DNA from: Candidatus Firestoneibacteriota bacterium
GTDB taxonomy: Bacteria; Oederibacteriota; D2-FULL-39-29; JBDRBU01
Assembly: GCA_043822305.1 (NCBI GenBank)
Contig: JBDRBU010000094.1
Location: forward strand, 1 to 15,116
Direction: 5' to 3'
Length of the DNA stretch: 15,116 nt
Below are positions 2,444 to 15,116 of the stretch, piece after piece; position 1 is the stretch's first letter, and every line of letters starts with the position of its first letter. A program made the position numbers and the translations under genes. A model generated the notes under the pieces. The model was not told the origin of the DNA, searched no databases, and worked only from the letters and a program-made list of their open reading frames with translations.

Positions 2444-3196
2444 ATGGAATATAATGTTAAGGGACGAGATATTTTGATAACTATTCCAGCTGCTAACTAT
2501 AGAGAGTATAGATTTAATAAAAGAAAAAATAGATTAGATTTTGGAGAAACTTTCTCAACAAGAAAGTCTATTTTTGATGAGCAAGTCTATTTAGAATGGC
2601 AAATAGGTTATGATGTCCTAGTTAATGAAGTTGAGAAGGGGGAAAAGAAAACAAAATTAGACAAAAAAGATTTTTTAGGTAGTAACGGCAAGCGCAAGTA
2701 TCCTTCTCAATTGTCAGAAATCTTTTATGCTGCTATTGAATTGGACCTTATCTCAAATAAAGAAGTTAATCATTTGCTTGATGAAATAAGGGGTTATCAG
2801 GGTTTTATAGATGAGAAAACTATAAGCGTAGAGCACCATTCCAAACTTACTATTAACGGAATAAACTTTGAAGAAACAAGCATCAAATTGCCTACACTTT
2901 TTATGATTGAAACCATAGATGAAACACAAATCGAAGTTTCTATTAAAAAACAACAATATGCCACTGGTGTTCAACCTATGGTTTATTTTTGTATACCCAT
3001 TCAATCTTTTATGAATTCGTCTTATCTTTTAGGTAAATCATCTGTTTCGGGAGACAATCTAATATATGTTATAAACAAAAACAATGTTCAAAATCTAATA
3101 AGTTTGATGAAAATTTTCGGTATGGCTTCTAAACGCCATAATTATGATATTGTCCAAATTATTCAAACATTACGTGAAATACATGCAAGTAAATAA
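2444..3196 (+). CDS. R.PabI-family (HALFPIPE) restriction DNA glycosylase
   Basis: 'YLEWQIGYD' and 'KQQYATGVQPMVYFCIP' blocks plus C-terminal 'FGMASKRHNYDI' (HxxD) are characteristic of the R.PabI/R.HpyAXII family. Overlaps a methyltransferase gene. Confidence 0.82.
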   Translation: MEYNVKGRDILITIPAANYREYRFNKRKNRLDFGETFSTRKSIFDEQVYLEWQIGYDVLVNEVEKGEKKTKLDKKDFLGSNGKRKYPSQLSEIFYAAIELDLISNKEVNHLLDEIRGYQGFIDEKTISVEHHSKLTINGINFEETSIKLPTLFMIETIDETQIEVSIKKQQYATGVQPMVYFCIPIQSFMNSSYLLGKSSVSGDNLIYVINKNNVQNLISLMKIFGMASKRHNYDIVQIIQTLREIHASK

Positions 3197-4361
3197 AGCA
3201 GAACATTTGCCGAAACATAAACAAGTCCAGCTTGGGAGTTATTACACTCCAGAAAAATTAACAAGAAGGGTTTACGATTTTATTCAACCATATCTTTCGG
3301 CTCGTCGAAAAAAGATTGTAATAGTTGATAGTGCTGGGGGATGTGGAGCATTTTTAGTTCATGCTAATGGGAATGATTATCGCATAGCAGATAAAGATGC
3401 CAAAGCATGTGCGTTCTTAAGGCAACGGTTTGATAAGAATAAAATATTTCATACAAATTCTTTAACTAGGGTGAGTAGGGAAAAATATTTAATACCCCCT
3501 TCTGCATTTTTAATAATGATTGGAAATCCTCCTTATAATGATACAACCTCGGAGTTTAAGAATGGAAGAAAGGGGAAAAATATATGTGATGAGGATTTAT
3601 ACGATAGAGACTTAGGGGTATCGTTTTTAAAATCATACCATAAACTAAAAGCTGATATTGTTTGCATATTGCATCCTTTATCATATTTAATTAAAGAGAC
3701 TAACTTTAAGCGATTGCGTGTTTTTAAAAATAGCTACAAACTAACAAAAGGAGAAATATTTTCTAGTGCCTTGTTCCACGGAACAGGTTTAATTAAGTTC
3801 CCAATATTGATAGCCCTTTATGAAAGAACTGTAGAAGGAATGACATTTGATTATATTAGGCATTTTAAATTTAATATATTAGGTAGTAATAAGAAATTTG
3901 TTTTATCTAATTATAAAACAACAGACGGCTATATTGATAAATATCCCCCTCGCAAACATGACATAAAAAAGTCTCCTATAGGATTATATTATTACACCTT
4001 TCGTGATTTTAATTCTTTAAAAAAGAACACCTCTTTTATTACGAAAGAGCATCCCAATGGAATTGTTGTAACATTAGAGAACTTTTATAAGTATTCGTAT
4101 CTCTATTCGTTGAAAAGTCTGTTTAAGCCTGAAGATGCGTGGTTATATGGGAATCTGTCTCCCCTCGCAAACATAGAAGATATAGAGCAGAATAAAGAAC
4201 TTTATATCTCATACGCTATTAAAACCAATCAATCTTTCAGAGAAATGGATAATTCTCTTCAGAAAAAAATTGTAAATTATTACAAAATAAAAACTTACAA
4301 TATGGAGCATGTTGACAAGATTGAAAAAACAATCAAGAATAGGTTGAACAGGTTAATTTAA
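3183..4361 (+). CDS. N6-adenine DNA methyltransferase (gamma-type), cognate of the PabI-family enzyme
   Basis: Motif X 'LGSYYTP', motif I 'DSAGGCGAF', motif IV 'GNPPY'. Likely start ATG 3183 overlapping the R gene; the ORF track starts at 3144. Confidence 0.9.
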   Translation: MQVNKAEHLPKHKQVQLGSYYTPEKLTRRVYDFIQPYLSARRKKIVIVDSAGGCGAFLVHANGNDYRIADKDAKACAFLRQRFDKNKIFHTNSLTRVSREKYLIPPSAFLIMIGNPPYNDTTSEFKNGRKGKNICDEDLYDRDLGVSFLKSYHKLKADIVCILHPLSYLIKETNFKRLRVFKNSYKLTKGEIFSSALFHGTGLIKFPILIALYERTVEGMTFDYIRHFKFNILGSNKKFVLSNYKTTDGYIDKYPPRKHDIKKSPIGLYYYTFRDFNSLKKNTSFITKEHPNGIVVTLENFYKYSYLYSLKSLFKPEDAWLYGNLSPLANIEDIEQNKELYISYAIKTNQSFREMDNSLQKKIVNYYKIKTYNMEHVDKIEKTIKNRLNRLI

Positions 4362-4374
4362 TTTTCAAAAAGAG

Positions 4375-4605
4375 ATGTTAAGCGTGGTCATGAAAAATAA
4401 AATTAGTAATGATTCGGGAGCATTAGAATGGACATATTGTAAAAAATGCAACCAAAATACCAATCATCAAATTTCCAAGAATAAAAAAAATATTATAAAG
4501 ATGGATTGTATTTACTGTAAAAATCTAAAAAATAGGGGAAAACATGGTGTTGCGAAGACAAAGCCTAAAAATGGTTGGACTAAATCAGGGTTCACAGTTA
4601 AATAA
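4375..4605 (+). CDS. Small basic putative Zn-ribbon protein, function unknown
   Basis: Two CxxC pairs (CKKC, CIYC); fills the gap between co-oriented genes. No clear SD; start may be 4390. Confidence 0.45.
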   Translation: MLSVVMKNKISNDSGALEWTYCKKCNQNTNHQISKNKKNIIKMDCIYCKNLKNRGKHGVAKTKPKNGWTKSGFTVK

Positions 4606-4639
4606 AACGGAGTCAGGTCTTGCATTAACACATTAAGAA

Positions 4640-5560
4640 ATGACAGCTGCGAAACAAAAATATCTATTCTATGTTTTAGTATTAAGCCTAATTTTCTTAG
4701 CAAGTTGCACCCACAATACCATTAACCAAACAACACAGCTAAACACTCCTCAAGAAACAAAAAAACCTACTGCCATAGAACAGCAAACAATAAAAATAGC
4801 CTCATTTAACATTCAGATTTTCGGCCAGACAAAAATAAAAAATGATGAAGTCATGCAGATAATCTCAAAAATAGTCAAACAATATGACTTAGTTGCAATA
4901 CAGGAAGTAAGAAGCACTGAACAAAATGTTATACCCACCTTGCTGAATTACATTAATGACGCCAATACAAAATATGACTATATAATAAGTGAAAGGTTAG
5001 GCAGAAGTACGAGCAAAGAGCAGTATGTCTTTGTCTATAACACAAAAACAATAAATCTTATTCCAAATAGCAGTTATGTTGCAGGAGACCCTGACGATGT
5101 TTTTGAAAGAGAGCCGTTTATTGCTTCTTTTAAAGCAGGGAATTTTGATTTCACAATAGTTGATAATCACGTCAAGCCTGAAGATGTAGAGGCAGAATTA
5201 ACACACCTGAAAATAGAAATAAATAAAATCTATGATGGCTCTTCTGAAAAAGATGTTATAGTTGTCGGAGATATGAATGCAGACGGCTCTTATTTTAAAG
5301 AAGAAAAACTGGCTGTAATTTTACCTGAATGGACACAGATGATTGGGAATAATGTAGATACAACAGTCGGAACTGCTGATAACACCTATGATAGAATGAT
5401 GACAAGAGATACAACTGCAAACGTGGAATATACTGGCAATTCAGGAGCATTCAGATGGGATACTGAATATAACGTAACAGATTCTGCTTTTATCAAGAAA
5501 GTTTCAGATCATTATCCTGTATACGCTGAATTTAGGGTTGATTTGCAGGATGATGATTAA
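4640..5560 (+). CDS. DNase I-like exonuclease/endonuclease/phosphatase (EEP) lipoprotein
   Basis: Signal peptide with lipobox LASC. DNase I motifs IASFNIQ.FG, DLVAIQEVR, SERLGR.TSKEQY.FVY, FEREPF, GDMNAD.SY, YDR and SDHYPV. Confidence 0.92.
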   Translation: MTAAKQKYLFYVLVLSLIFLASCTHNTINQTTQLNTPQETKKPTAIEQQTIKIASFNIQIFGQTKIKNDEVMQIISKIVKQYDLVAIQEVRSTEQNVIPTLLNYINDANTKYDYIISERLGRSTSKEQYVFVYNTKTINLIPNSSYVAGDPDDVFEREPFIASFKAGNFDFTIVDNHVKPEDVEAELTHLKIEINKIYDGSSEKDVIVVGDMNADGSYFKEEKLAVILPEWTQMIGNNVDTTVGTADNTYDRMMTRDTTANVEYTGNSGAFRWDTEYNVTDSAFIKKVSDHYPVYAEFRVDLQDDD

Positions 5561-5592
5561 GAATCAGGAAAGATTTATTAAGAGCCGGAGCA

Positions 5593-7023
5593 ATGTTTAG
5601 AATGGGAGGCAAGATTAAAATGCCTATAAAAAAATCTATAGTACAAAATTATGATAATTGGGTTAGAAGAAAAGAAAGTATTGCAGACTTATTTCTTGAT
5701 CTAGAAAATATCCGATTACAAGTGGAAGGACAAACTTCACAGGATGCTTTAATCAATGATCTTTTTTTGAATGAAGACGCTATGCAAACATTAGAAAGCA
5801 TAGCTACAAACGGCTTTTTCCCGGACGAGATCCCCGTCGTCATTAGGGAAAACAAAAAACTTGTTGTCATTGATGGCAACCGAAGAGTTGCTGCTTTGAA
5901 AGTATTACTACATCCAGAAATTGTTCCGTCAAAAGAAACAAAAATTAGGGAATTAATAAAGAGTGCAGGGCCATTAATTAAGGAAATGGAGGTTGTTTTG
6001 GCCCCGGATCGCGATTCAGTTAGACACTTTTTAGCAAGCAAACATACACACGATACAAGACGACCTTGGCGACCATTAAGACAGGCTTATTTTTATAAGG
6101 CAGAACTTGCTAGAGGCAAAACCGTTCAAGATTTAAGAAAAGAATATCCAAATGTTGATATAGATAAATTCTTAAAACTTATCAATATTCATAGAATCGC
6201 CAAATCCATACAATATGATTCTGATCAAGTAACGAAGAAAGTTCATAACGAACGCACTTTCCCTGCTTCCACAATCGGAAGGCTGTATGAAGATAAGCGG
6301 GTGAGAAATTTTCTTGGTTTCGATTTTGATAAGAACGGAGAAGTAAAAATACAAATTAGCAAAAAGGAATTTGAAAAGGGATTTAAAAAGATTGTACAAG
6401 ATGTTGTAGATAAGATCGTCGATTCACGTTCTTTAAACACCGAGAAGAACAGGAAAGATTATCTTGCCACTTTTTCAAAGGCAGAGATTCCCAATAAGAC
6501 AAAAAGTGGGGGTATCATTACAAGCAAGGATTTCAAAGAGACCATCCCTCTCACTATTAAGAAAAAAACAAAATTAGCACCGAGAGATATTGATTTTACG
6601 CTTCAGTGTCCCGGGGTAGGAAGAATGCTTAGTGAGCTTCAAAAGATAGATTACCATAAGTTCCCGAACGCATCTCACGATCTTCTGAGAAGTTTTCTTG
6701 AGTGCGCCCTTAAGGCCTATTTTTATCAAAAAGGCACACAAATTAAGCCAGCTGGCAAATTTGTATATCTAAATGATGTTTTGCGAGAATTTAAGAAGGA
6801 GATGGATTCTACAAAAAATATCGAGCTATCCCAAGTCACACAGAGAATAATCAGTAATACAAACATGAATTCTTATTCCGTACAATTCCTTAATGCAGTA
6901 AATCATAATTCAAGCGTTTTTGCCATTGCTAAAGACGTAGAGGACGCATGGGATACAATGGAAAAACTATTCCGCTACATTTTAAATCCCAAGAAAAAAC
7001 AAGATGATAAAGATAATATATAA
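5593..7023 (+). CDS. ParB/Srx-like N-terminal domain protein with HEPN-like C-terminal domain; probable defence effector
   Basis: 'LDLENIRL' and 'VVIDGNRRVAALK' ParB/Srx motifs. C-terminal 'LLRSFLECALKAY ... FLNAVNHN' resembles HEPN helices with a terminal His motif. Start may be 5620 (SD GGAGG 5605-5609). Confidence 0.68.
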   Translation: MFRMGGKIKMPIKKSIVQNYDNWVRRKESIADLFLDLENIRLQVEGQTSQDALINDLFLNEDAMQTLESIATNGFFPDEIPVVIRENKKLVVIDGNRRVAALKVLLHPEIVPSKETKIRELIKSAGPLIKEMEVVLAPDRDSVRHFLASKHTHDTRRPWRPLRQAYFYKAELARGKTVQDLRKEYPNVDIDKFLKLINIHRIAKSIQYDSDQVTKKVHNERTFPASTIGRLYEDKRVRNFLGFDFDKNGEVKIQISKKEFEKGFKKIVQDVVDKIVDSRSLNTEKNRKDYLATFSKAEIPNKTKSGGIITSKDFKETIPLTIKKKTKLAPRDIDFTLQCPGVGRMLSELQKIDYHKFPNASHDLLRSFLECALKAYFYQKGTQIKPAGKFVYLNDVLREFKKEMDSTKNIELSQVTQRIISNTNMNSYSVQFLNAVNHNSSVFAIAKDVEDAWDTMEKLFRYILNPKKKQDDKDNI

Positions 7024-7852
7024 AAGAAATCTTAAGTTTCATTATAGTCCTTTAAGATATCCAGGAGGGAAAACTTTTCTATTTTCATTTTTTGATAAAG
7101 TAATCAAAAAAAATGGATTGGGAAATATTACTTACATAGAGCCATTTGCAGGAGGAGCTGGCGCAGCATTAGCTTTATTGTTTTTAGAAAAGGTGGAAAA
7201 AATAGTTATTAATGACCTTGATAAGGCGATTTACTCTTTTTGGAAATCAGCAATTTTTGATTCAGAAAAATTTATAAAAAAAATATTCTCAACACCGATT
7301 TCTATTAAAGAATGGAGAAAACAAAAGTTAATTTATAAGAATCCAAAATCCGATTGTTTTGATTTAGGGTTTGCAACCTTCTTTCTGAACAGAACTAATA
7401 TTTCTGGTATAGTCAATGGAGGTCCAATTGGTGGCATCCAGCAAAAGGGCAAATGGAAAATAGATGCGAGATTCAATAAAGAAAAATTGGCTGAAAGAAT
7501 ACGTCAATTATCCTTGTATAAAAATAGGATTTCAGTTTTTAATAGAGATGGAGTTGATTTGATGAAGGGCTATCTAAATAAAAAAAATGTTTTTATATAT
7601 CTTGACCCACCATATTACGAGAAGGGCGCTACGTTATACCTGAATCACTACAAAAAAGAGGATCACGAGGTGCTCGCAAAGCTATTAAATTGTAATCCAG
7701 ATGCATTTTGGTTACTCACTTACGACAATAAAAAAGAAATAAAATCCCTTTATCCAGAAAGAAAGATAGCTAATTTTTCGTTAAACTATAATGCCTATGA
7801 ATCTTACAAGGGAAAAGAAATATTGATTTCATCTGATGCCCTTGTGGTTTAA
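7004..7852 (+). CDS. Dam-like (D12 class) N6-adenine DNA methyltransferase
   Basis: 'SPLRYPGGK', 'EPFAGGAG', 'FFLNRT' and 'YLDPPYY'; overlaps the upstream gene by 20 bp. Confidence 0.93.
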   Translation: MIKIIYKRNLKFHYSPLRYPGGKTFLFSFFDKVIKKNGLGNITYIEPFAGGAGAALALLFLEKVEKIVINDLDKAIYSFWKSAIFDSEKFIKKIFSTPISIKEWRKQKLIYKNPKSDCFDLGFATFFLNRTNISGIVNGGPIGGIQQKGKWKIDARFNKEKLAERIRQLSLYKNRISVFNRDGVDLMKGYLNKKNVFIYLDPPYYEKGATLYLNHYKKEDHEVLAKLLNCNPDAFWLLTYDNKKEIKSLYPERKIANFSLNYNAYESYKGKEILISSDALVV

Positions 7853-7928
7853 TTATGCAGCTCTTTCTTTTTCCTAAGATAGAAAAATTATTAAGGCAAA
7901 AAATCTACCTATATTGAGGTAATATAAA

Positions 7929-9794
7929 ATGACATCATATACTTCCGTCACTGCAGAAGCCCATACCCCGCCTTATAAAATACATAGATACTTTGCAAGA
8001 AGGCCTTGGAATGTCTTTAAGAACTTGATAGAAACCTTCAGTAAGGAAGGCGATATTATTTTAGATCCTTTTTGTGGTGGAGGCGTTACCCTTTACGAAG
8101 GACTCAAAGTTGGGCGAAAAGTTGTTGGATTGGATTTAAATCCTCTTTCTATTTTTCTTGTAAGAAATATGATAAGAAAAAAGGTAGATTTTATAGAACT
8201 TAATTCAGCCTTCCAAAAGATAAGTGATTATTTAAAACATCTTTATGGTGATTATAATCTAGTTGATTGTGAGTCTAGGCAAAAAACTTTATTAAAAGAG
8301 AAAATTGAAATTGAATGGAACGAACTTACATTTTATGCTTTTTGCAATCTTTGTGGGCACAAAGTATTGTTATCAAACAAAAACAGAATATCAAATGGTA
8401 GATATTCTTGCTCAAATTCTAGTTGTAAAGGTAACAAAAATAATGATGGTTTCATTGAACCAAAAAATTGTAAAAGAGATGGTTATAAATACCTTTACTC
8501 TGTAATTTATTCTCCTATAGACAGAAAAAAGATAATCATTGAATATGATGATGAAAGGAACAAAAAGTTAAATAAGCACATAAAATTCTTAGAAAAAGAA
8601 ATTAGCAAGAATAAAATTGAGATCGGAAAAGACGAAATTCCACTTAATTGGGATAGACAATATGAAGACCTGCTATACAAAAAAGGTATAAAATATTTTC
8701 AAGATTTATTTACAAAAAGGAATTTGTTAATTAATTTATTGCTTCTTAACTATATTTCTAAGCTGAATATAACTAAGGATACATACGAAGTGTTAAGACT
8801 TGTTTTTAGTAGTTCTCTAAGAGATACCAATATAATGTCTTTTACAAATAGTGGATGGCAATCAGGTAAGCCTACTACTTGGTCTAAGCATGCTTATTGG
8901 GTCCCCTCTCAATTTTGTGAAAATAATGTTTTATCTTCATTTAAAAAGGCATTTAATAGAGTACGAAGTGCATTTCTTTTTAATGAACAATTCAACTATG
9001 AAGTAATTCCTGTGAATAGATTTGACACTTTAAGGGACAAAGGAAATATACTTTTGTTAAACGCCTCAATTGATGAGGTAAATATTCCAGATAATTCCAT
9101 TGATACAATTATTACAGACCCTCCTTATGGAAGCAATGTCCAGTATTTGGAGTTATCACATTTTTGGTATGTTTGGAATAAAGACTTATATGAAACTAAA
9201 ACCCTAAATTTCTTAAAAGAGGCTGTTGCTAATAGAAAGAAGAATTTCGTTGGCGCTAAGTCTATGAAAGATTATGAAAATAATCTATTCTTAGTATTTC
9301 ATAAATCTTATCATGTTTTAAAACCGAATAGACATATGGTTTTAACATTTAATAATAGAGATATTGGGGCTTGGTTGGCATTGCTTATTTCTATATTTCG
9401 TGCAGGTTTTACATTAGAAAAAGAAGGATTATATTTCCAGGATGGAGTGGATAATTACAAACAGACTGCTCATACTAAATACGATGGTTCTCCATATGGA
9501 GATTTTATTTATGTTTTTAAGAAAGATACAAAGAAAAAAATTGGATTAAAGAACATGACAGAGACAGATTTTATCAAGGATTTAGATATGATTTTTGCTA
9601 CTTATCTAAACAATTTTAATAATTCAAGATATGACAGAAATGAAGTTATAAGGAAGATGTTCTTAAAAGTAATACCTAAAATAGAAATATTTGTTAAGTC
9701 CAATCTTTTAAAAAGCGATAAACATAATTTATATACTCACTTTGACAAAAACTATCTACGAAGGATATACACCCCAAATGACAAGAAAGAGTGA
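7929..9794 (+). CDS. Amino-DNA methyltransferase (DPPY) with Cys-rich insertion
   Basis: N-terminal 'IHRYFARRP' and motif I 'LDPFCGGG'; CNLC...CSNSSC Zn-finger-like insert; motif IV 'ITDPPY'; SD GAGGT. Confidence 0.88.
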   Translation: MTSYTSVTAEAHTPPYKIHRYFARRPWNVFKNLIETFSKEGDIILDPFCGGGVTLYEGLKVGRKVVGLDLNPLSIFLVRNMIRKKVDFIELNSAFQKISDYLKHLYGDYNLVDCESRQKTLLKEKIEIEWNELTFYAFCNLCGHKVLLSNKNRISNGRYSCSNSSCKGNKNNDGFIEPKNCKRDGYKYLYSVIYSPIDRKKIIIEYDDERNKKLNKHIKFLEKEISKNKIEIGKDEIPLNWDRQYEDLLYKKGIKYFQDLFTKRNLLINLLLLNYISKLNITKDTYEVLRLVFSSSLRDTNIMSFTNSGWQSGKPTTWSKHAYWVPSQFCENNVLSSFKKAFNRVRSAFLFNEQFNYEVIPVNRFDTLRDKGNILLLNASIDEVNIPDNSIDTIITDPPYGSNVQYLELSHFWYVWNKDLYETKTLNFLKEAVANRKKNFVGAKSMKDYENNLFLVFHKSYHVLKPNRHMVLTFNNRDIGAWLALLISIFRAGFTLEKEGLYFQDGVDNYKQTAHTKYDGSPYGDFIYVFKKDTKKKIGLKNMTETDFIKDLDMIFATYLNNFNNSRYDRNEVIRKMFLKVIPKIEIFVKSNLLKSDKHNLYTHFDKNYLRRIYTPNDKKE

Positions 9795-11103
9795 ATGTAA
9801 GCTGATTCGAAATCAGTTAAAGTATAAAAAATTATATCCGGCATATCTTAGAATGCTATATACTTTAAACAGGGAATATAGAGTAAAGAAAGAACATTCG
9901 TTTTCTGATTTAGTAAACTTTAAAACAAATAAAGAAATTCCTAGACACAATTGGTTTTTTTATAAACAGGGCTATTCTGAGAAGTTAGTCAGTGAACTAC
10001 TCCTTAAAGAAAAACCTCCCAAGACTCGCTATGTATTAGATCCTTTTACAGGAGTCGGAACAACTAATCTTGTTGCAAAAAGTTTAGGATATAGAAGTAT
10101 AGGATTGGATATTAATCCTGTAGCTACCTTTGCAGCAAAAGTAAAAACTACTACATTTTCAAAACAAGAGATCAATAAAATAAATACTATGATTAAATTA
10201 TTTTCACCTACAAAAAAGAGTCAGATTATACCTATTTCCCCCTTACTTGAAAGGTCTTTTTCTAAGATTGCCTTTAATAAATTAATGCATATAAAGAGGT
10301 TTTTTGAGTCAATAAAAGATAAAAAAATAGCCTCTTTTTTTAAATTGGCATATCTTTCTATTATCGAAGATTGTTCTAATAGAATAAAAGATGGTAACGG
10401 ACTTAAGATTGCTATGAATAAGAGGAAAATACGAGATATTTACAGCTTCTATATTAATAAATGCAAGGTAATGGTTAATGACATTTATAGATTAAATTCT
10501 GGTAAAAAACCCATAATAATCAACGGTTCTATATTACTAAAAGAACATTTTGATAAGATAAAAGATAAAAAAGTAGGTATTGTTATTTTTTCTCCACCTT
10601 ATCTTAACTGTTTTGATTATTGTGAAGTATATAAACTTGAATTATGGATGGGGGGGTTTGTTAATAATTATGAAGATTTTAAGAAATATCGGACAATGGC
10701 AGTGAGGTCCCATGTTAATTCAGAATTTAATCATTGTATACAAAATCCTAATGCTAAAGTTAAATTAATCTCAGAAACAATATCTTGTTTCAACATTTGG
10801 AATAAAAATATTCCTGATATGATAGAAGGATACTTTGACGACATGACCAAAATGTTTAAGAAATTACACTTTCTTATGGTAAAAGGAGGTAAGTGCTTTA
10901 TAGTTATTGCTAACTCGGGATATAAGGGTGTATTAGTGCCAACTGATTTGTTGCTCGCAGATATTGCTAAAATGAATGGTTTTAAAGTTGCCAGTGTTAT
11001 ATATGCACGAAAAATTCGAGCTTCATCTCAACAAATGAATGAGCTACATAATACCTATAAGAATCTAATCAGGGAAAGCATAGTTGTCTTGGAGAAAAAA
11101 TGA
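9778..11103 (+). CDS. Amino-DNA methyltransferase, SPPY type (probably N4-cytosine)
   Basis: 'HNWFFYKQGYS', motif I 'LDPFTGVGTT', motif IV 'FSPPY', C-terminal 'RESIVVL'. ATG 9778 preferred over TTG 9742. Confidence 0.88.
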   Translation: MTRKSECKLIRNQLKYKKLYPAYLRMLYTLNREYRVKKEHSFSDLVNFKTNKEIPRHNWFFYKQGYSEKLVSELLLKEKPPKTRYVLDPFTGVGTTNLVAKSLGYRSIGLDINPVATFAAKVKTTTFSKQEINKINTMIKLFSPTKKSQIIPISPLLERSFSKIAFNKLMHIKRFFESIKDKKIASFFKLAYLSIIEDCSNRIKDGNGLKIAMNKRKIRDIYSFYINKCKVMVNDIYRLNSGKKPIIINGSILLKEHFDKIKDKKVGIVIFSPPYLNCFDYCEVYKLELWMGGFVNNYEDFKKYRTMAVRSHVNSEFNHCIQNPNAKVKLISETISCFNIWNKNIPDMIEGYFDDMTKMFKKLHFLMVKGGKCFIVIANSGYKGVLVPTDLLLADIAKMNGFKVASVIYARKIRASSQQMNELHNTYKNLIRESIVVLEKK

Positions 11104-13970
11104 AATTTCATCCATTACTAAAATCTAAGATAAAGAGTTGGAATGAACTAGAGAAACATATAGAACAACTGCCAAACACAAAAGAAATGGGAAATGTTTT
11201 TGAGCAGTTTGTATATGTCTATTTTCTTATCAAGCACAACTTATATCAAATAGCTGAGCACTATATGGAGAAAGATATTCCCTTGGAATATAGGAGAAGG
11301 TTTAATTTTGAAAGATATGATTGCGGAGTAGATGGTTTAATTATATTTAAAAATGGCAAAAGCGCCGCTTATCAAGCAAAATTTAGAAGTGATAGAGTGC
11401 AACCTTCCTATGCCGAATTAACAAAGTTTTGGGCTGAAGCAAAATCAACTGATTACAATTATACGGTAGCAAATTGTTATTACCTTTCTAGACTTTGCGC
11501 GAAACAACCGAAGCATCTGAGTATTTTGGTTGATGAGTTTGAAAATTTAGGTTCAGAATTTTTTAATGAATTTTATCTATGCATTAATGCAGAAAAACCA
11601 AAGCGTCAATTATATGCTCCTGATAAATTCCAGCAAAGAATGATTGGTAATGTGTTGAAGGGCTTCACAAAATATAATAGAGGGAAATTGATTGCCGCTT
11701 GTGGTACTGGCAAAACTTTAACAGCTTTATGGATTTCTGAACTTATGAAGACTCAGAAGGTTCTTTTTTTAGCACCGAGTTTAGCTTTAATAAAACAGAC
11801 ACTAGAATCATGGACAGAGCAAGCCAGTAGAGATTTTTCTTATTTGTGTGTATGTAGTGATAAAACGGTTTCTGACGAAATAGACAGTGGAGACATTAAG
11901 CTATCTGATTTTAATGTCCCGGTTACAACTTCCCCTAATGATATTTGTAAGTATTTATCGCAAAAATCAGAAGAGAAAAAAATAATTTTTTCTACTTATC
12001 AATCACTAGATGTCTTATCTGAAAGCATAAATAAATTGGTTGGATTCACATTTGATTTAATAGTATTTGATGAAGCACATAGGACTGCCGGCACAAAAGA
12101 TTCCTCTTTGTTCTCGTTAGCTCTTTATGACCAAAATATCCCATCAAAAAAGAGGCTTTTTATGACTGCAACTGAGAGATTAATTAGGCCATGGATTCTG
12201 AAAAAAGCGAAAGAGTTTAATAGAGTTGTTTTTTCAATGGACAATCCAGAACTATACGGTCCTGTTTTTGATAGATTTAATTTCGGCGAAGCTATCCAAA
12301 ACAAAATTATTTCTGATTACAGGATTATTGTTGCAGGAGTTAAAGCAAAAGAGGTATATGGTTGGATTAAAAGTAATAAATTGCTGGTTCATACTGAGAG
12401 TGGTTCTAAAGAATATTTCACATATGCTCAAAATATATTTCGACAGATTATGTTAATCAAGTCAATGCGTAATTTTAAAATGAAAAAATGTATAACCTTC
12501 CATTCTAATATTAAAAATGCAGTTTCATTTATTCGAGGAGTGAGTTCAGAAGATACTAATTTAAGGCAAGTGTTTAGTAGGCTTTGGCCAGAGTTATACG
12601 GAAAGGATTTATATCTAGATCATGTTAACGGCACAATGAGCGCAGGAGACAGAAAAGAGCGCCTAGATATTTTTAGGGATTCTAAATTTGGTGTAATTTC
12701 TAATGCAAGATGTTTAACCGAAGGAGTAGATGTTCCAATTATTGATAGTGTTTATTTTGTCAATCCAAGGCATTCTTTGATTGATATTGTCCAAGCCTGT
12801 GGAAGGGCTCTAAGAAAACCAAGAGATAAACATGATAAATTAGCATATTTCATCGTGCCTATTTTGATACCAGATATAGATGAAAAAGTGGACATTATTA
12901 ATGAAGTTGATTTTGAAATGCTACATGATTTGATACAGTCATTAAGAGACCAGGATCAACGACTTTCAGAGTGGATAGATAAAATTAATCTTAGTGCCTC
13001 TCAAGGTAAAACATATAGATTTTCTGAGGGGTCAGATAGTCCAATAATTCTTAATTTACCTGCTGAGTTTAATGTGAAAGATTTTGAAAAGAAATTATAC
13101 CTGAGGATTGCAGAGGTAAACAGAAATCCAACGCACTTTGACTACAAAACTAGGAAGTATGGTAAAACCGAGAGAAAAAGTGAGTATAAGAGAATATTCA
13201 AAACCCTTGGGGATTATTCAGTTGAATCTTATAAGAATAACTTGGTTATGCCCACCATAAGGAAATTTCAATCTAAAGACCAGACATTATCTACTGCAAA
13301 ACTTAAAATTAATCATAATAATATATCTCACACTGAGCGATTGGGTTTAATAATTAAGGAGAAAACTGGATATAAGTTATCTCCTTTAGGAATTCAGCTT
13401 TTTGAGGATAAAATTAATTTTGAATTATTATTTAAACAACAAATGTTAAGATATTTCTCATCTGATAAGCAAGGAGGGCGTATTTTATTCCCATACAGAG
13501 CTTGCTTAAAGATATTATTAGAAGCCAAATCAATTAATTTCATTGAATTCGCTTTCGGCTTATATTCATTAATAGATTCATCAGAAGAATCAATTATCGC
13601 AGGGGCAGAAGACACAAAGTTTCTGAGAGAAAAATATCCCAATTTGGAAATTTTAAGTGAAACGAATAAACATAAAGTTTTAAAAGAATTGAATAAATAT
13701 TTTGGGACAAACTTTTCAGTAACAGACATCTGGGCTAAAAAAACAACAATTAATAATCAATATATCTATTTTAGAAATCATCTTTCTTTATTCAATGATT
13801 TTATTGTTATAGATGAAAAAAACAGAACTATGACTCTCATCAAAGGCAAAGAAAAAGCACTCAAAGAATTATTATTAAGAGACTCTTTGCTTGAATATGA
13901 AAAAGACGAGACTATCCTAAAAAAGAAATATATTCAAAAACTCATAATATTCATGCTTTTTTCTTTATAA
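11100..13970 (+). CDS. Mrr-like PD-(D/E)xK nuclease fused to an SF2 (DEAH) helicase and a C-terminal putative DNA-recognition domain; restriction enzyme
   Basis: 'GNVFE...DCGVDG...YQAK' nuclease; Walker A 'ACGTGKT', 'FDEAH', 'MTAT', 'LTEGVDVP', 'IVQACGRALR'; about 270 additional C-terminal residues. ATGA overlap with the upstream MTase. Confidence 0.87.
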   Translation: MKFHPLLKSKIKSWNELEKHIEQLPNTKEMGNVFEQFVYVYFLIKHNLYQIAEHYMEKDIPLEYRRRFNFERYDCGVDGLIIFKNGKSAAYQAKFRSDRVQPSYAELTKFWAEAKSTDYNYTVANCYYLSRLCAKQPKHLSILVDEFENLGSEFFNEFYLCINAEKPKRQLYAPDKFQQRMIGNVLKGFTKYNRGKLIAACGTGKTLTALWISELMKTQKVLFLAPSLALIKQTLESWTEQASRDFSYLCVCSDKTVSDEIDSGDIKLSDFNVPVTTSPNDICKYLSQKSEEKKIIFSTYQSLDVLSESINKLVGFTFDLIVFDEAHRTAGTKDSSLFSLALYDQNIPSKKRLFMTATERLIRPWILKKAKEFNRVVFSMDNPELYGPVFDRFNFGEAIQNKIISDYRIIVAGVKAKEVYGWIKSNKLLVHTESGSKEYFTYAQNIFRQIMLIKSMRNFKMKKCITFHSNIKNAVSFIRGVSSEDTNLRQVFSRLWPELYGKDLYLDHVNGTMSAGDRKERLDIFRDSKFGVISNARCLTEGVDVPIIDSVYFVNPRHSLIDIVQACGRALRKPRDKHDKLAYFIVPILIPDIDEKVDIINEVDFEMLHDLIQSLRDQDQRLSEWIDKINLSASQGKTYRFSEGSDSPIILNLPAEFNVKDFEKKLYLRIAEVNRNPTHFDYKTRKYGKTERKSEYKRIFKTLGDYSVESYKNNLVMPTIRKFQSKDQTLSTAKLKINHNNISHTERLGLIIKEKTGYKLSPLGIQLFEDKINFELLFKQQMLRYFSSDKQGGRILFPYRACLKILLEAKSINFIEFAFGLYSLIDSSEESIIAGAEDTKFLREKYPNLEILSETNKHKVLKELNKYFGTNFSVTDIWAKKTTINNQYIYFRNHLSLFNDFIVIDEKNRTMTLIKGKEKALKELLLRDSLLEYEKDETILKKKYIQKLIIFMLFSL

Positions 13971-14010
13971 ACTTCATAAATAAATTTTTATATATTTTAT
14001 TAACCTGATA

Positions 14011-14046
14011 AAAAAGTTCACTTTACATAGGAAGTGCGAACTTTTT
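14011..14046 (+). terminator. Imperfect hairpin with A- and T-tracts after the R-M operon; coincides with the left recombination-like site
   Basis: AAAAAGTTC-ACTT-tacatagg-AAGT-gc-GAACTTTTT, 40 bp after the stop at 13970. Confidence 0.45.
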
Positions 14047-14258
14047 CATTTTATCCTCTAATTCCTATCTGATTCATTTCACGTCGTCAAATCTATTCTT
14101 CTAATATTTCTCTATTTCTACAACCTACTAATTTATTCTCTCCGTTTTCCTTCTATTTCTCATTTCCAGAATCCTACTCTATAAACCGGCGTCGGAAAGC
14201 TTAAATACATCTATTTCGCCTTTATTATAGCAGTTCACCTTTCCTATGAATGATGAAC
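14016..14258. mobile_element. Candidate invertible DNA segment bounded by inverted 26-bp sites
   Basis: GTTCACTTTA-CATAGG-AAGTGCGAAC (14016-14041) and GTTCACCTTT-CCTATG-AATGATGAAC (14233-14258) are 19/26 identical as reverse complements, with an identical centred core. The second site ends 7 bp before the recombinase ATG. Confidence 0.62.
14224..14232 (-). promoter_or_regulatory. Extended -10 element TGcTATAAT on the minus strand inside the candidate invertible segment
   Basis: + strand ATTATAGCA is the reverse complement of TGCTATAAT. The -35 position currently reads CATTCA (poor). Confidence 0.55.
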
Positions 14259-14265
14259 ACACAAA

Positions 14266-14880
14266 ATGACATTTACGTGGATATTAGACGAAAGTAAGTA
14301 CCTAAAAACAGAAGAAGTGAGAAAGCTCATGGATACCTGCCGGGAATTAATGCGAAAACACAGAAGTTATCTGGCAGTCAGGAATTGTTTCATGGTTGAA
14401 CTCGGCTTGTTTACAGGATTGAGAGTGAAGGAAATGGCTAACCTGAATTGCGGTGATCTTTTAATCGGAAATGAGCAATCCACATTAATAGTAAGCAAAG
14501 GCAAGGGAGACAAGAAAAGAATTGTAAAACTCAACAGTGAATTTAGAAGAAAATGCTTAAAGTTTCTCAAATACAAAGAAAAAATAAATCAAAGTATAAG
14601 TGAAGATTCTCCACTGTTCTGTTCTCTTTCAGGCAGAAGATTAACTAGAAGAGCATTGCAAAAATCATTCAAGAAATGCATGGAAATCGCAGAATTGTCT
14701 GAGCATTACGGAATTCACAGCTTAAGGCATACATATGCCTCTCATTTATACAAGGCAAGCAATCACAATCTCAGATTAGTGCAGGAGCAATTAGGACATT
14801 CTTCTATAAAAACGACAGAAGTTTATGCAAATCTGATGGCAACAGACGTGAATGAAGCGCTTGAAAATCTTTACAAGTAA
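14266..14880 (+). CDS. Compact tyrosine recombinase (catalytic domain only; XerC/D-like motifs, FimB/FimE-like size)
   Basis: Catalytic set R (TGLRVKE), K (KGKGDKKR), HxxR (HSLRH), H (LGHSS), Y (TTEVY). 204 aa, with no N-terminal arm- or core-binding domain. No SD upstream. Confidence 0.94.
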   Translation: MTFTWILDESKYLKTEEVRKLMDTCRELMRKHRSYLAVRNCFMVELGLFTGLRVKEMANLNCGDLLIGNEQSTLIVSKGKGDKKRIVKLNSEFRRKCLKFLKYKEKINQSISEDSPLFCSLSGRRLTRRALQKSFKKCMEIAELSEHYGIHSLRHTYASHLYKASNHNLRLVQEQLGHSSIKTTEVYANLMATDVNEALENLYK

Positions 14881-14891
14881 GGAGGTGAGCG

Positions 14892-15098
14892 ATGTTTGAG
14901 TATTGTGGCTGGTGTAACAAACATATCAATCTTCTGAATTTTCAGAAAGTTGCATTAAGAATAAACGGAAATATTGAAAAGAAAAGATTATGGTTCTGCG
15001 CGCCAAGATGTCTTCTTGAATTTAACAGGCTTTATGAAGGAAGTAATTTCAACATGCGACTTGACGTTCCAAAAGCATTGAAAGCAGGTAAATGGTGA
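14892..15098 (+). CDS. Small putative treble-clef Zn-finger protein (TRASH/YHS-like)
   Basis: CGWC...WFCAPRC pattern; strong SD AGGAGGT at 14880-14886. Another SD (AGGAGG) at the window end implies the operon continues. Confidence 0.7.
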   Translation: MFEYCGWCNKHINLLNFQKVALRINGNIEKKRLWFCAPRCLLEFNRLYEGSNFNMRLDVPKALKAGKW

Positions 15099-15116
15099 AA
15101 ATAAAAAAGGAGGGGA

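Follow-up and report, generated by a model that had tools for sequence, protein, structure and literature searches.

To our knowledge, phase variation by DNA inversion has been documented almost entirely in host-associated, cultured bacteria. In the fimS switch of Escherichia coli, the small tyrosine recombinases FimB and FimE (~200 aa) adjoin a short invertible element that contains the whole promoter, and the recombinase genes lie upstream, outside the regulated operon. The passages that describe the cwpV switch of Clostridioides difficile place the promoter outside the repeats and a terminator at the left-repeat junction in the OFF orientation, with 96% of the genomic DNA in OFF and inversion carried out by RecV (Emerson et al. 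2009, PMC2784873). Passages on gut Clostridia report an inverton group 139 associated with tyrosine invertase group 35, the flipping of which is shown by reads, and describe invertases encoded near invertons as, in general, not open to regulation by them (PMC11892184). Here, we analyze a locus at the right end of contig JBDRBU010000094.1 from Candidatus Firestoneibacteriota bacterium (assembly GCA_043822305.1), in which two 26-bp inverted sites lie directly upstream of a gene encoding a 204-aa tyrosine recombinase. The stretch studied, hereafter the window, is the entire 15,116-bp contig of a metagenome-assembled genome (MAG) of 2,148,896 bases with 31.6% GC. A sequence-only reading of the window had proposed that the adjacent recombinase inverts the segment between the sites (14032–14242) as a phase switch, and our comparison of related loci supports this proposal, through site cores that covary and homologues in which the segment is flipped. 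As far as such comparisons can tell, it is very likely that the recombinase flips this segment and thereby sets the expression of itself and of the genes behind it.

The two sites are indeed present in the window, with the half-sites and the centered inverted cores that the sequence-only reading had described. The distal site, S1 (14016–14041), consists of the arm GTTCACTTTA, the core CATAGG (14026–14031), and the arm AAGTGCGAAC, and it is flanked by an A-run (14010–14015) and a T-run (14042–14046). The proximal site, S2 (14233–14258), consists of the arm GTTCACCTTT, the core CCTATG (14243–14248), and the arm AATGATGAAC. Both therefore have a 10-6-10 layout, GTTCRY opens all four half-sites, the identity around the inverted cores reaches 8 bp (CATAGGAA and TTCCTATG), and the 211 bp between the cores form the putative invertible segment. 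A repeat search of the window recovers S1 and S2 as an inverted repeat (27 nt, 74% complementary, 189 nt apart) but also as a direct alignment (19 nt at 79%), which is expected because each site is itself palindromic. By manual count, the two sites match at 19/26 positions when inverted vs. 18/26 when direct, so that only the asymmetric core fixes their relative orientation. The pattern GTTCRY-N14-RYGAAC, with at most one mismatch, has two matches in the window where 0.19 are expected, a number reached in 1 of 200 shuffles, and its only exact matches in the whole 2.15-Mb genome are S1 and S2. The looser GTTC-N18-GAAC has 19 matches genome-wide, S1 and S2 among them. The locus has no Rfam match and no tRNA target. 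In L002, a closely related locus (93% identity), S1 is identical at 26/26 positions and S2 differs at two bases, in the outer arm only. The homology between the two loci, 91% identity across the whole 1108-nt alignment, starts 6 nt before S1, and it includes a diverged segment between the sites.

The recombinase gene (14266–14880, plus strand) begins 33 nt downstream of the start of S2 (14233) and encodes a catalytic domain only. Its product clearly belongs to the tyrosine recombinase/phage integrase superfamily, with a PF00589 score of 110.4 bits (cut-off 27.1, E 1.1e-31) over residues 12–190 of 204 and with R53, K80, H151, R154, H178, and Y187 invariant in 27 aligned sequences. The closest solved relative is the catalytic domain of XerH (residues 175–355 of 363, E 8e-21). 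As for narrower families, the protein falls below all Xer cut-offs, the best model being XerA (124 bits vs. a cut-off of 220), and the Xer matches begin at model positions 93–112, leaving the N-terminal part of the models unmatched. These matches indicate a Xer-like catalytic domain devoid of the N-terminal DNA-binding domain. The likeness to FimB and FimE drawn in the sequence-only reading holds for size, for the position next to the switch, and for the predicted mode of action; it does not extend to family membership, since the models NF007370 and NF007371 give 32.9 and 29.1 bits vs. cut-offs of 221 and 222. Relatives of the recombinase are numerous, with 840 found at E ≤ 0.001 among proteins of 112–357 aa, the best 120 of which measure 162–264 aa.

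Strand exchange by tyrosine recombinases requires identity in the crossover region. Scanning one genome per species yielded 378 stretches encoding relatives of the recombinase, of which the best 79 loci (designated below by L numbers) were kept and, with the window, made a set of 80. Pairs were sought within 700 nt upstream of the recombinase gene, as 26-mers with at least seven of the eight end letters GTTC...GAAC that lie 100–500 bp apart. This gave 63 candidate pairs. In 48 of them, from 48 loci (47 fetched and the window), the cores are exact reverse complements of each other, and directly identical cores occur in none of the 63. The 48 paired loci use 29 distinct core words, none of them palindromic, and when a distal site is set against the proximal site of another locus the cores match in only 140 of 2256 cases. 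A distal site compared with the reverse complement of its own partner shows 29–79% identity at arm positions 5–10 and 17–22, and identity is thus concentrated in the crossover region. A terminator, an operator, or an RNA stem would have no need of such covariation between sites that are 140–290 bp apart in the relatives; the check on core conservation that the sequence-only reading had called for hence came out in its favor. The window locus itself combines the features by which invertons are recognized, namely, inverted sites, identical crossover regions, a short segment between them, and a recombinase nearby.

The second line of evidence is that the segment occurs in both orientations among homologues, as the same reading had anticipated. 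The sense strand of the segment in the window is 31% purine, with a GC skew of −0.57, and the same bias, toward pyrimidines and toward C over G on the strand that is sense for the recombinase, holds for 46 of the 48 paired loci, the window included. In the other two, L008 and L010, the bias is reversed. Moreover, L010 carries at its distal and proximal sites the inner arms of its relative L015 in exchanged positions, 35 nt beside the proximal site of L013 correspond to L015's distal inner flank in reverse complement (31/34, by eye), and L078 has one distal-type and one proximal-type arm at its distal site and the converse at its proximal site, with matching cores. L010 and L013 are 92% identical, so these four flipped loci represent about three independent cases. 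Among loci in the majority orientation, 13 segment pairs are similar, and for all 13 the same-orientation alignment is the better one. The exchange of inner arms in the flipped homologues, judged by these alignments, is as predicted for crossover within the core. The outward-facing start codon at S1 had at first suggested that the window is inverted with respect to "ON" loci, an idea that was dropped because the strand composition is that of the majority orientation.

To see what inversion would change, we turned to promoters, terminators, and ribosome-binding sites, the calls for which are all consensus predictions. Most relatives have a predicted sigma-70-type promoter ending 7–14 nt upstream of the distal site. 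In the 47 loci scored (L020, with <160 nt upstream, was dropped), a promoter of at least 10/12 is found there in 26 and of at least 11/12 in 14. At least 10/12 is reached in 1/47 loci in a control zone further upstream, in 2/47 on the opposite strand, in 3/47 within the segment in the sense direction, and in 5/47 within it in the antisense direction; at least 11/12 is reached in none of these four controls. With a fixed promoter outside the sites, inversion in most relatives would therefore alter the leader and not the promoter. The predicted hairpin at the distal junction averages −12.6 kcal/mol in the majority orientation vs. −9.0 kcal/mol in the other (more stable in the majority orientation in 35/48 loci, less in 11, equal in 2), and the next 10 nt contain on average 6.65 U vs. 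4.1 (more in 41/48, fewer in 5, equal in 2). A hairpin followed by a U-tract at the distal junction in one orientation, a feature of a cwpV-type arrangement, is thus predicted for most of these loci. The sites probably serve also as part of a terminator, so that one part of the fallback offered in the sequence-only reading, operators or a terminator in place of a switch, stands, but not as an alternative to the switch.

The window and its nearest relatives appear to be wired differently from this family pattern, with a promoter apparently split across a site. S1 is followed by a T-run as elsewhere, with a predicted hairpin of −10.2 kcal/mol and then 8 T in 10 nt, where the flipped orientation would have four. 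A −35-like hexamer, TTTACA (14022–14027, plus strand), spans the fixed outer arm and the core of S1, and an extended −10 element, TGCTATAAT, lies on the minus strand just inside S2 (14224–14232), where it now points away from the recombinase; the latter element is conserved in L002 and L081. Flipping the segment in silico brings TTTACA 17 bp from TGCTATAAT (TATAAT preceded by TG), which gives a predicted promoter of 11/12 plus the TG, and the same holds for L002. Translation signals are arranged in a similar manner. In the present orientation, the recombinase is preceded by a seven-codon leader open reading frame (ORF; 14246–14269, plus strand) whose ATG lies in the core of S2 and whose TGA overlaps the recombinase ATG, and there is no ribosome-binding site before either start. 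A ribosome-binding site, AGAGGA, is found instead on the minus strand (reverse complement of 14054–14059), with an eight-codon ORF (14049 down to 14023) that reads outward across S1, followed by a minus-strand hairpin (−13.3 kcal/mol) and six T. Once flipped in silico, AGAGGA and a 14-codon leader ORF precede the recombinase, the stop of the leader overlapping the recombinase ATG. The flipped-state promoter, ribosome-binding site, and leader are all conserved in L002.

In many relatives, the proximal site lies within the 5′ coding region of the recombinase. An N-terminal peptide, M-(S/P)-F-L-x-K-F-I-K-L-M-K, reads across this site in L009, L010, L058, L018, and L008 and in proteins P0012, P0025, P0063, and P0068; its start codon is inside the invertible segment, and in L008 and L010, which are flipped, the frame of the peptide runs outward past the distal site and meets a stop. 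Going by these reading frames, the two orientations could give long and short forms of the recombinase. The leader, being C-rich and G-poor, could also load Rho, by analogy with the flgB switch, for which Rho loading is reported (PMC7446863).

Taken together, these features suggest the following mechanism, which we infer for the window locus. The recombinase would bind both 10-6-10 sites upstream of its own gene and exchange strands within the inverted 6-bp cores, thus flipping the 211-bp segment together with the two inner arms. The segment would be the leader of an operon headed by the recombinase gene, and its orientation would set the expression of the recombinase and of the genes that follow. 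In OFF, S1 and the inner T-run would act like a terminator, TGCTATAAT, the sole good −10 element, would point leftward, apart from TTTACA, and the recombinase ATG would have no ribosome-binding site. After the flip, TTTACA and TGCTATAAT would stand 17 bp apart, the T-run would be gone, the leader would be rich in purines, and AGAGGA with the 14-codon leader would lie directly before the recombinase start. Since the enzyme would be made mainly in ON, the ON state should revert fast and the OFF state should be long-lived, leaving a small ON subpopulation; by this kinetic argument, the predominance of one orientation (46 loci vs. 2) would be explained. If the locus is a switch, the present orientation of the window, which is that of the majority, is on these predictions probably the OFF state.

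Public sequencing data offer a limited view of this strain. Four runs (X1, X2, X3, and X5) are available as Logan contigs only, covering at most 0.18 of the stretch, and none covers the upstream flank of the window (13700–13987), so that they hold relatives and not this strain. In X1, a 1730-nt contig from a relative matches, on the minus strand, exactly 14026–14248, that is, from core to core, and continues on the recombinase side for another 1485 letters without a match to the recombinase. This is the appearance expected of a flipped copy, but we take it as a hint only. In the groundwater runs X2 and X5, relatives have a different upstream flank that ends with CTATATTAAAAAAT directly before S1 (place 14013) and contains a −10-like TATATT where other clades have the fixed promoter. 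A metagenome scan with the recombinase protein found one locus, L081 (95% identity), the sequence of which reaches only 99 nt upstream. Assemblies are prone to breaks here: the window contig stops 236 bp after the recombinase gene, L081 starts inside the segment, and Logan contigs end at or beside the sites, e.g., at 14052, 14026, and 14248. Such breaks fit branching of the assembly graph at a repeated or invertible site, while proving nothing.

Several observations weigh against an OFF-biased inversion switch in the window, or against parts of it. The fixed upstream promoter of the family is lacking in the window (8/12), L002 (7/12), and L003 (8/12), and the switch logic of these three loci is therefore extrapolated; a simple consensus scan of the window for promoters and terminators finds nothing at the sites. 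The 48 paired loci are phylogenetically related, so that their counts are not independent events and both the counts and the Wilcoxon p-values for hairpin stability and U content overstate independence, and 32 of the 80 loci have no pair by the end-letter criteria (six of the 80 have <350 nt of upstream sequence, and others have drifted end letters). Two further points bear on which orientation is ON. For 16 loci, all of one clade, the recombinase ORF in the majority orientation reaches back into the segment, which supplies an in-frame start with the conserved M-S/P-F-L beginning and a peptide that continues across the proximal site, and the distal hairpin of the window is weaker now than it would be if flipped (−8.2 vs. 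−11.1 kcal/mol). Both points favor a switch of opposite polarity, in which the pyrimidine-rich, unstructured leader of the majority orientation allows expression and the flip silences it. That polarity seems to us rather unlikely, because in the majority state a hairpin and U-run directly follow the fixed promoter, because the good promoter and ribosome-binding site of the window face the recombinase only once flipped, and because, by the kinetic argument, a state in which the recombinase is made should not dominate by 46 to 2.

A switch that operates in the family but has become a locked relic in this strain, its arms drifted and inversion ceased, would account for other points against activity here. 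The window, L002, and L081 all share one orientation, which leaves no flipped close relative, and arm symmetry is modest (8/10 in S2 and only 6/10 in S1). In addition, the check for inversion proposed in the sequence-only reading succeeded for homologues, found in both orientations, but not for this strain, no inverted junction being seen in the Logan contigs of X1, X2, X3, and X5, which come from relatives and, as assembled contigs, drop rare variants. We nevertheless hold a relic to be improbable: the cores are still identical over 8 bp, S1 is unchanged in L002 while the segment between the sites has diverged, the recombinase retains all catalytic residues, the signals that would act in the flipped state are conserved in L002, and the X1 contig of a relative matches the opposite strand from core to core. 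About equally doubtful is an att- or integron-like role of the sites, mainly in integration, excision, or the exchange of cargo, with S1 as a border joining different restriction-modification (R-M) cargo. The homology with L002 that begins just before S1, beyond which the R-M genes differ, argues for such exchange, as do the multi-copy, portable nature of the module and the R-M operons ending 31–46 nt before S1 in three of three window-clade loci. However, the sites are inverted, an arrangement that gives inversion instead of excision, searches of the window, L002, and L003 find no third site whose core matches, homologues occur in which the segment is flipped and the arms are swapped, and integron-integrase models give 70 bits vs. 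a cut-off of 265, which places the recombinase outside that family. Cargo exchange and inversion are in any case compatible, not exclusive. As for a reading with no recombination at all, in which the sites would be nothing more than operators, terminator hairpins, or a long-range stem of RNA or single-stranded DNA, each site is palindromic and S1 with its T-run resembles a bidirectional terminator. Yet the asymmetric core is kept reverse-complementary at a distance while changing from locus to locus, which operators and terminators do not need, the arms do not covary as a stem would, no Rfam family matches, and segments are found flipped in homologues, all of which makes this explanation very improbable. 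Inversion by the adjacent recombinase thus remains the reading that we favor.

The switch appears to travel as a compact unit. Among relatives, copies in the same genome included, homology starts at about the distal site and ends at the stop codon of the recombinase gene or a few hundred bases past it (−316 to +619 for L017/L021, −448 to +781 for L022/L038, and −291 to +1160 for L036/L047), which defines a conserved unit of ~0.9–1.2 kb with flanks that vary between loci. This module consists of the sites, the leader, and a catalytic-domain-only recombinase of ~205–240 aa, and these alignments indicate that it is portable. The "element" to which the sequence-only reading had assigned the downstream operon is not borne out, the conserved part being the module alone. 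Several genomes carry more than one copy: L046 and L079, for example, are two modules ~28 kb apart on contig CAZFOQ010000003.1. In L043, a second recombinase of the same family (5972–6589) lies directly downstream of the first. By record title, the hosts are MAGs of Omnitrophota, Planctomycetota, Elusimicrobia, Nitrospirota, Paceibacterota, and others, although taxonomic labels of MAGs may be wrong. Four loci are in MAGs labeled archaeal, L020 (Woesearchaeota), L042 (Bathyarchaeum), L076 (uncultured archaeon), and L078 (Aenigmatarchaeota), and L078 has a bacterial-type −10 element upstream; mis-binning or transfer could explain these modules. In a DNA search, 98 other genomes of the phylum gave no match, and a search for a plasmid or phage origin returned a single 36% match in 72,556 plasmid records and none in phages. 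We advance only tentatively the broader view that the promoter-site-leader-site-recombinase unit is an autonomous, self-limiting phase-variation cassette that copies itself before unrelated operons and confers bet-hedging, its own ON-only enzyme resetting OFF, in a wide range of phyla, among them candidate-phyla bacteria and perhaps DPANN archaea.

The genes that the module would control are diverse. In 59 of 70 loci, the gene that follows the recombinase lies close by on the same strand, and no neighbor family is common to more than five loci, that is, no conserved partner gene was found. The co-oriented next and second-next genes number 102; a Pfam scan of 100 of them, the two in L002 being examined separately, assigned a family to 45 of the 100 proteins. 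Among them are surface-type products (outer-membrane beta-barrels, PEP-CTERM, pilin-like N-methyl/DUF1559, lectins, PEGA, and giant proteins with FG-GAP/LamG/GLUG) and defense genes (AAA_21 with RloB, Schlafen/AlbA, SIR2-TPR, STAND-like NTPase, and HsdM), a cargo that is typical of phase-variable loci. In the window, the next gene of the operon (14892–15098, plus strand) encodes a 68-aa protein with four cysteines (CxxC ... CxxxC), and a strong ribosome-binding site for a further gene (15105–15116) coincides with the contig end. The 68-aa protein, which matches no Pfam or NCBIfam family, is conserved only in L002 (5627–5833), where the gene after it encodes a 665-aa PD40/PPC protein whose N terminus resembles a signal peptide.

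Upstream of the module, the last gene of an R-M-like cluster (11100–13970, plus strand) encodes a 956-aa ResIII/helicase protein and ends 46 nt before S1. L002 (28–4714) and L003 (2729–4724) have different co-oriented R-M operons that end 38 and 31 nt before their distal sites. Their contents differ, with methyltransferases and the ResIII helicase in the window cluster, two N6_N4 methyltransferases in L002, and one methyltransferase plus a TdeIII endonuclease in L003, and the relationship among the methyltransferases is only distant (33% over 55 aa). Further to the left, the window is dense in DNA-modification genes (2444–11103), with an R.Pab1-like endonuclease, an N6_Mtase, an endonuclease/exonuclease/phosphatase-family protein, a D12 methyltransferase, a 621-aa methyltransferase with a weak DUF1156-antiphage match, and a 453-aa N6_N4 methyltransferase the start of which overlaps the preceding gene. 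The left part of the contig also encodes a HicA-like toxin (88 aa) and HicB-like antitoxin (161 aa) pair (725–1451).

The module suggests that a compact, self-encoded, cwpV-like terminator-flip switch is widespread in uncultured groundwater and sediment lineages, where it would head operons for surface proteins and anti-phage systems. At ~0.9 kb, with one enzyme and two 26-bp sites, the system is small enough for plasmid work, and its covarying cores offer a natural set of orthogonal site/enzyme pairs. Annotators should be warned that contig breaks and "XerC/XerD" labels at such loci may hide a regulatory switch. We did not find this recombinase and switch family in the literature on invertons, DNA inversion, Planctomycetes, and Omnitrophota, supplements being outside the scope of the search; within the same scope, the text of the DeepInverton study (PMC11602134) contains no word beginning with Planctomyc or Omnitroph.

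How, then, does this locus compare with the known systems? With fimS, it shares a recombinase the expression of which is predicted to depend on orientation, but the enzyme fails the FimB/FimE family models. It resembles the Xer/dif systems in that its nearest catalytic-domain relatives are XerH, XerA, and XerD and in that its sites have two inverted arms around a 6-bp spacer; unlike Xer proteins, it has no N-terminal DNA-binding domain and scores below all their cut-offs, and unlike the single dif site, its sites form an inverted pair, 217 bp apart in the window, beside a gene, and relatives have several such modules per genome. The similarity to cwpV, as the passages on that switch describe it, extends to the distance between the inverted repeats (~195–211 bp), to the promoter upstream of the left repeat (in most relatives here), to a stem-loop and poly-U at the left-repeat junction in one orientation, with the DNA mostly that way, and to a regulated product that is there a surface protein (PMC2784873). 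By the same account, RecV is full-length, is encoded elsewhere, and serves several switches (PMC2784873), unlike the catalytic-domain-only enzyme described here, which is encoded in cis and is predicted to be the first gene of the regulated transcript. The window clade departs from cwpV in a further respect, since it lacks the fixed promoter and apparently splits a promoter across the site. Inverton group 139 is close in layout, with 26-bp inverted repeats ~206 bp apart in the one example described and a tyrosine recombinase nearby (PMC11892184). The recombinase here is, however, predicted to be the first regulated gene, unlike the invertases that the text of that study describes (PMC11892184), and its hosts are uncultured environmental phyla. 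Inversion switches of this general kind are thus already known from fimS, cwpV, and the group 139 invertons, and what appears to be new here is a cis-encoded, catalytic-domain-only, Xer-like enzyme that would head the regulated transcript, in a portable and often multi-copy module of uncultured environmental phyla, with an apparent split-promoter variant in the window clade.

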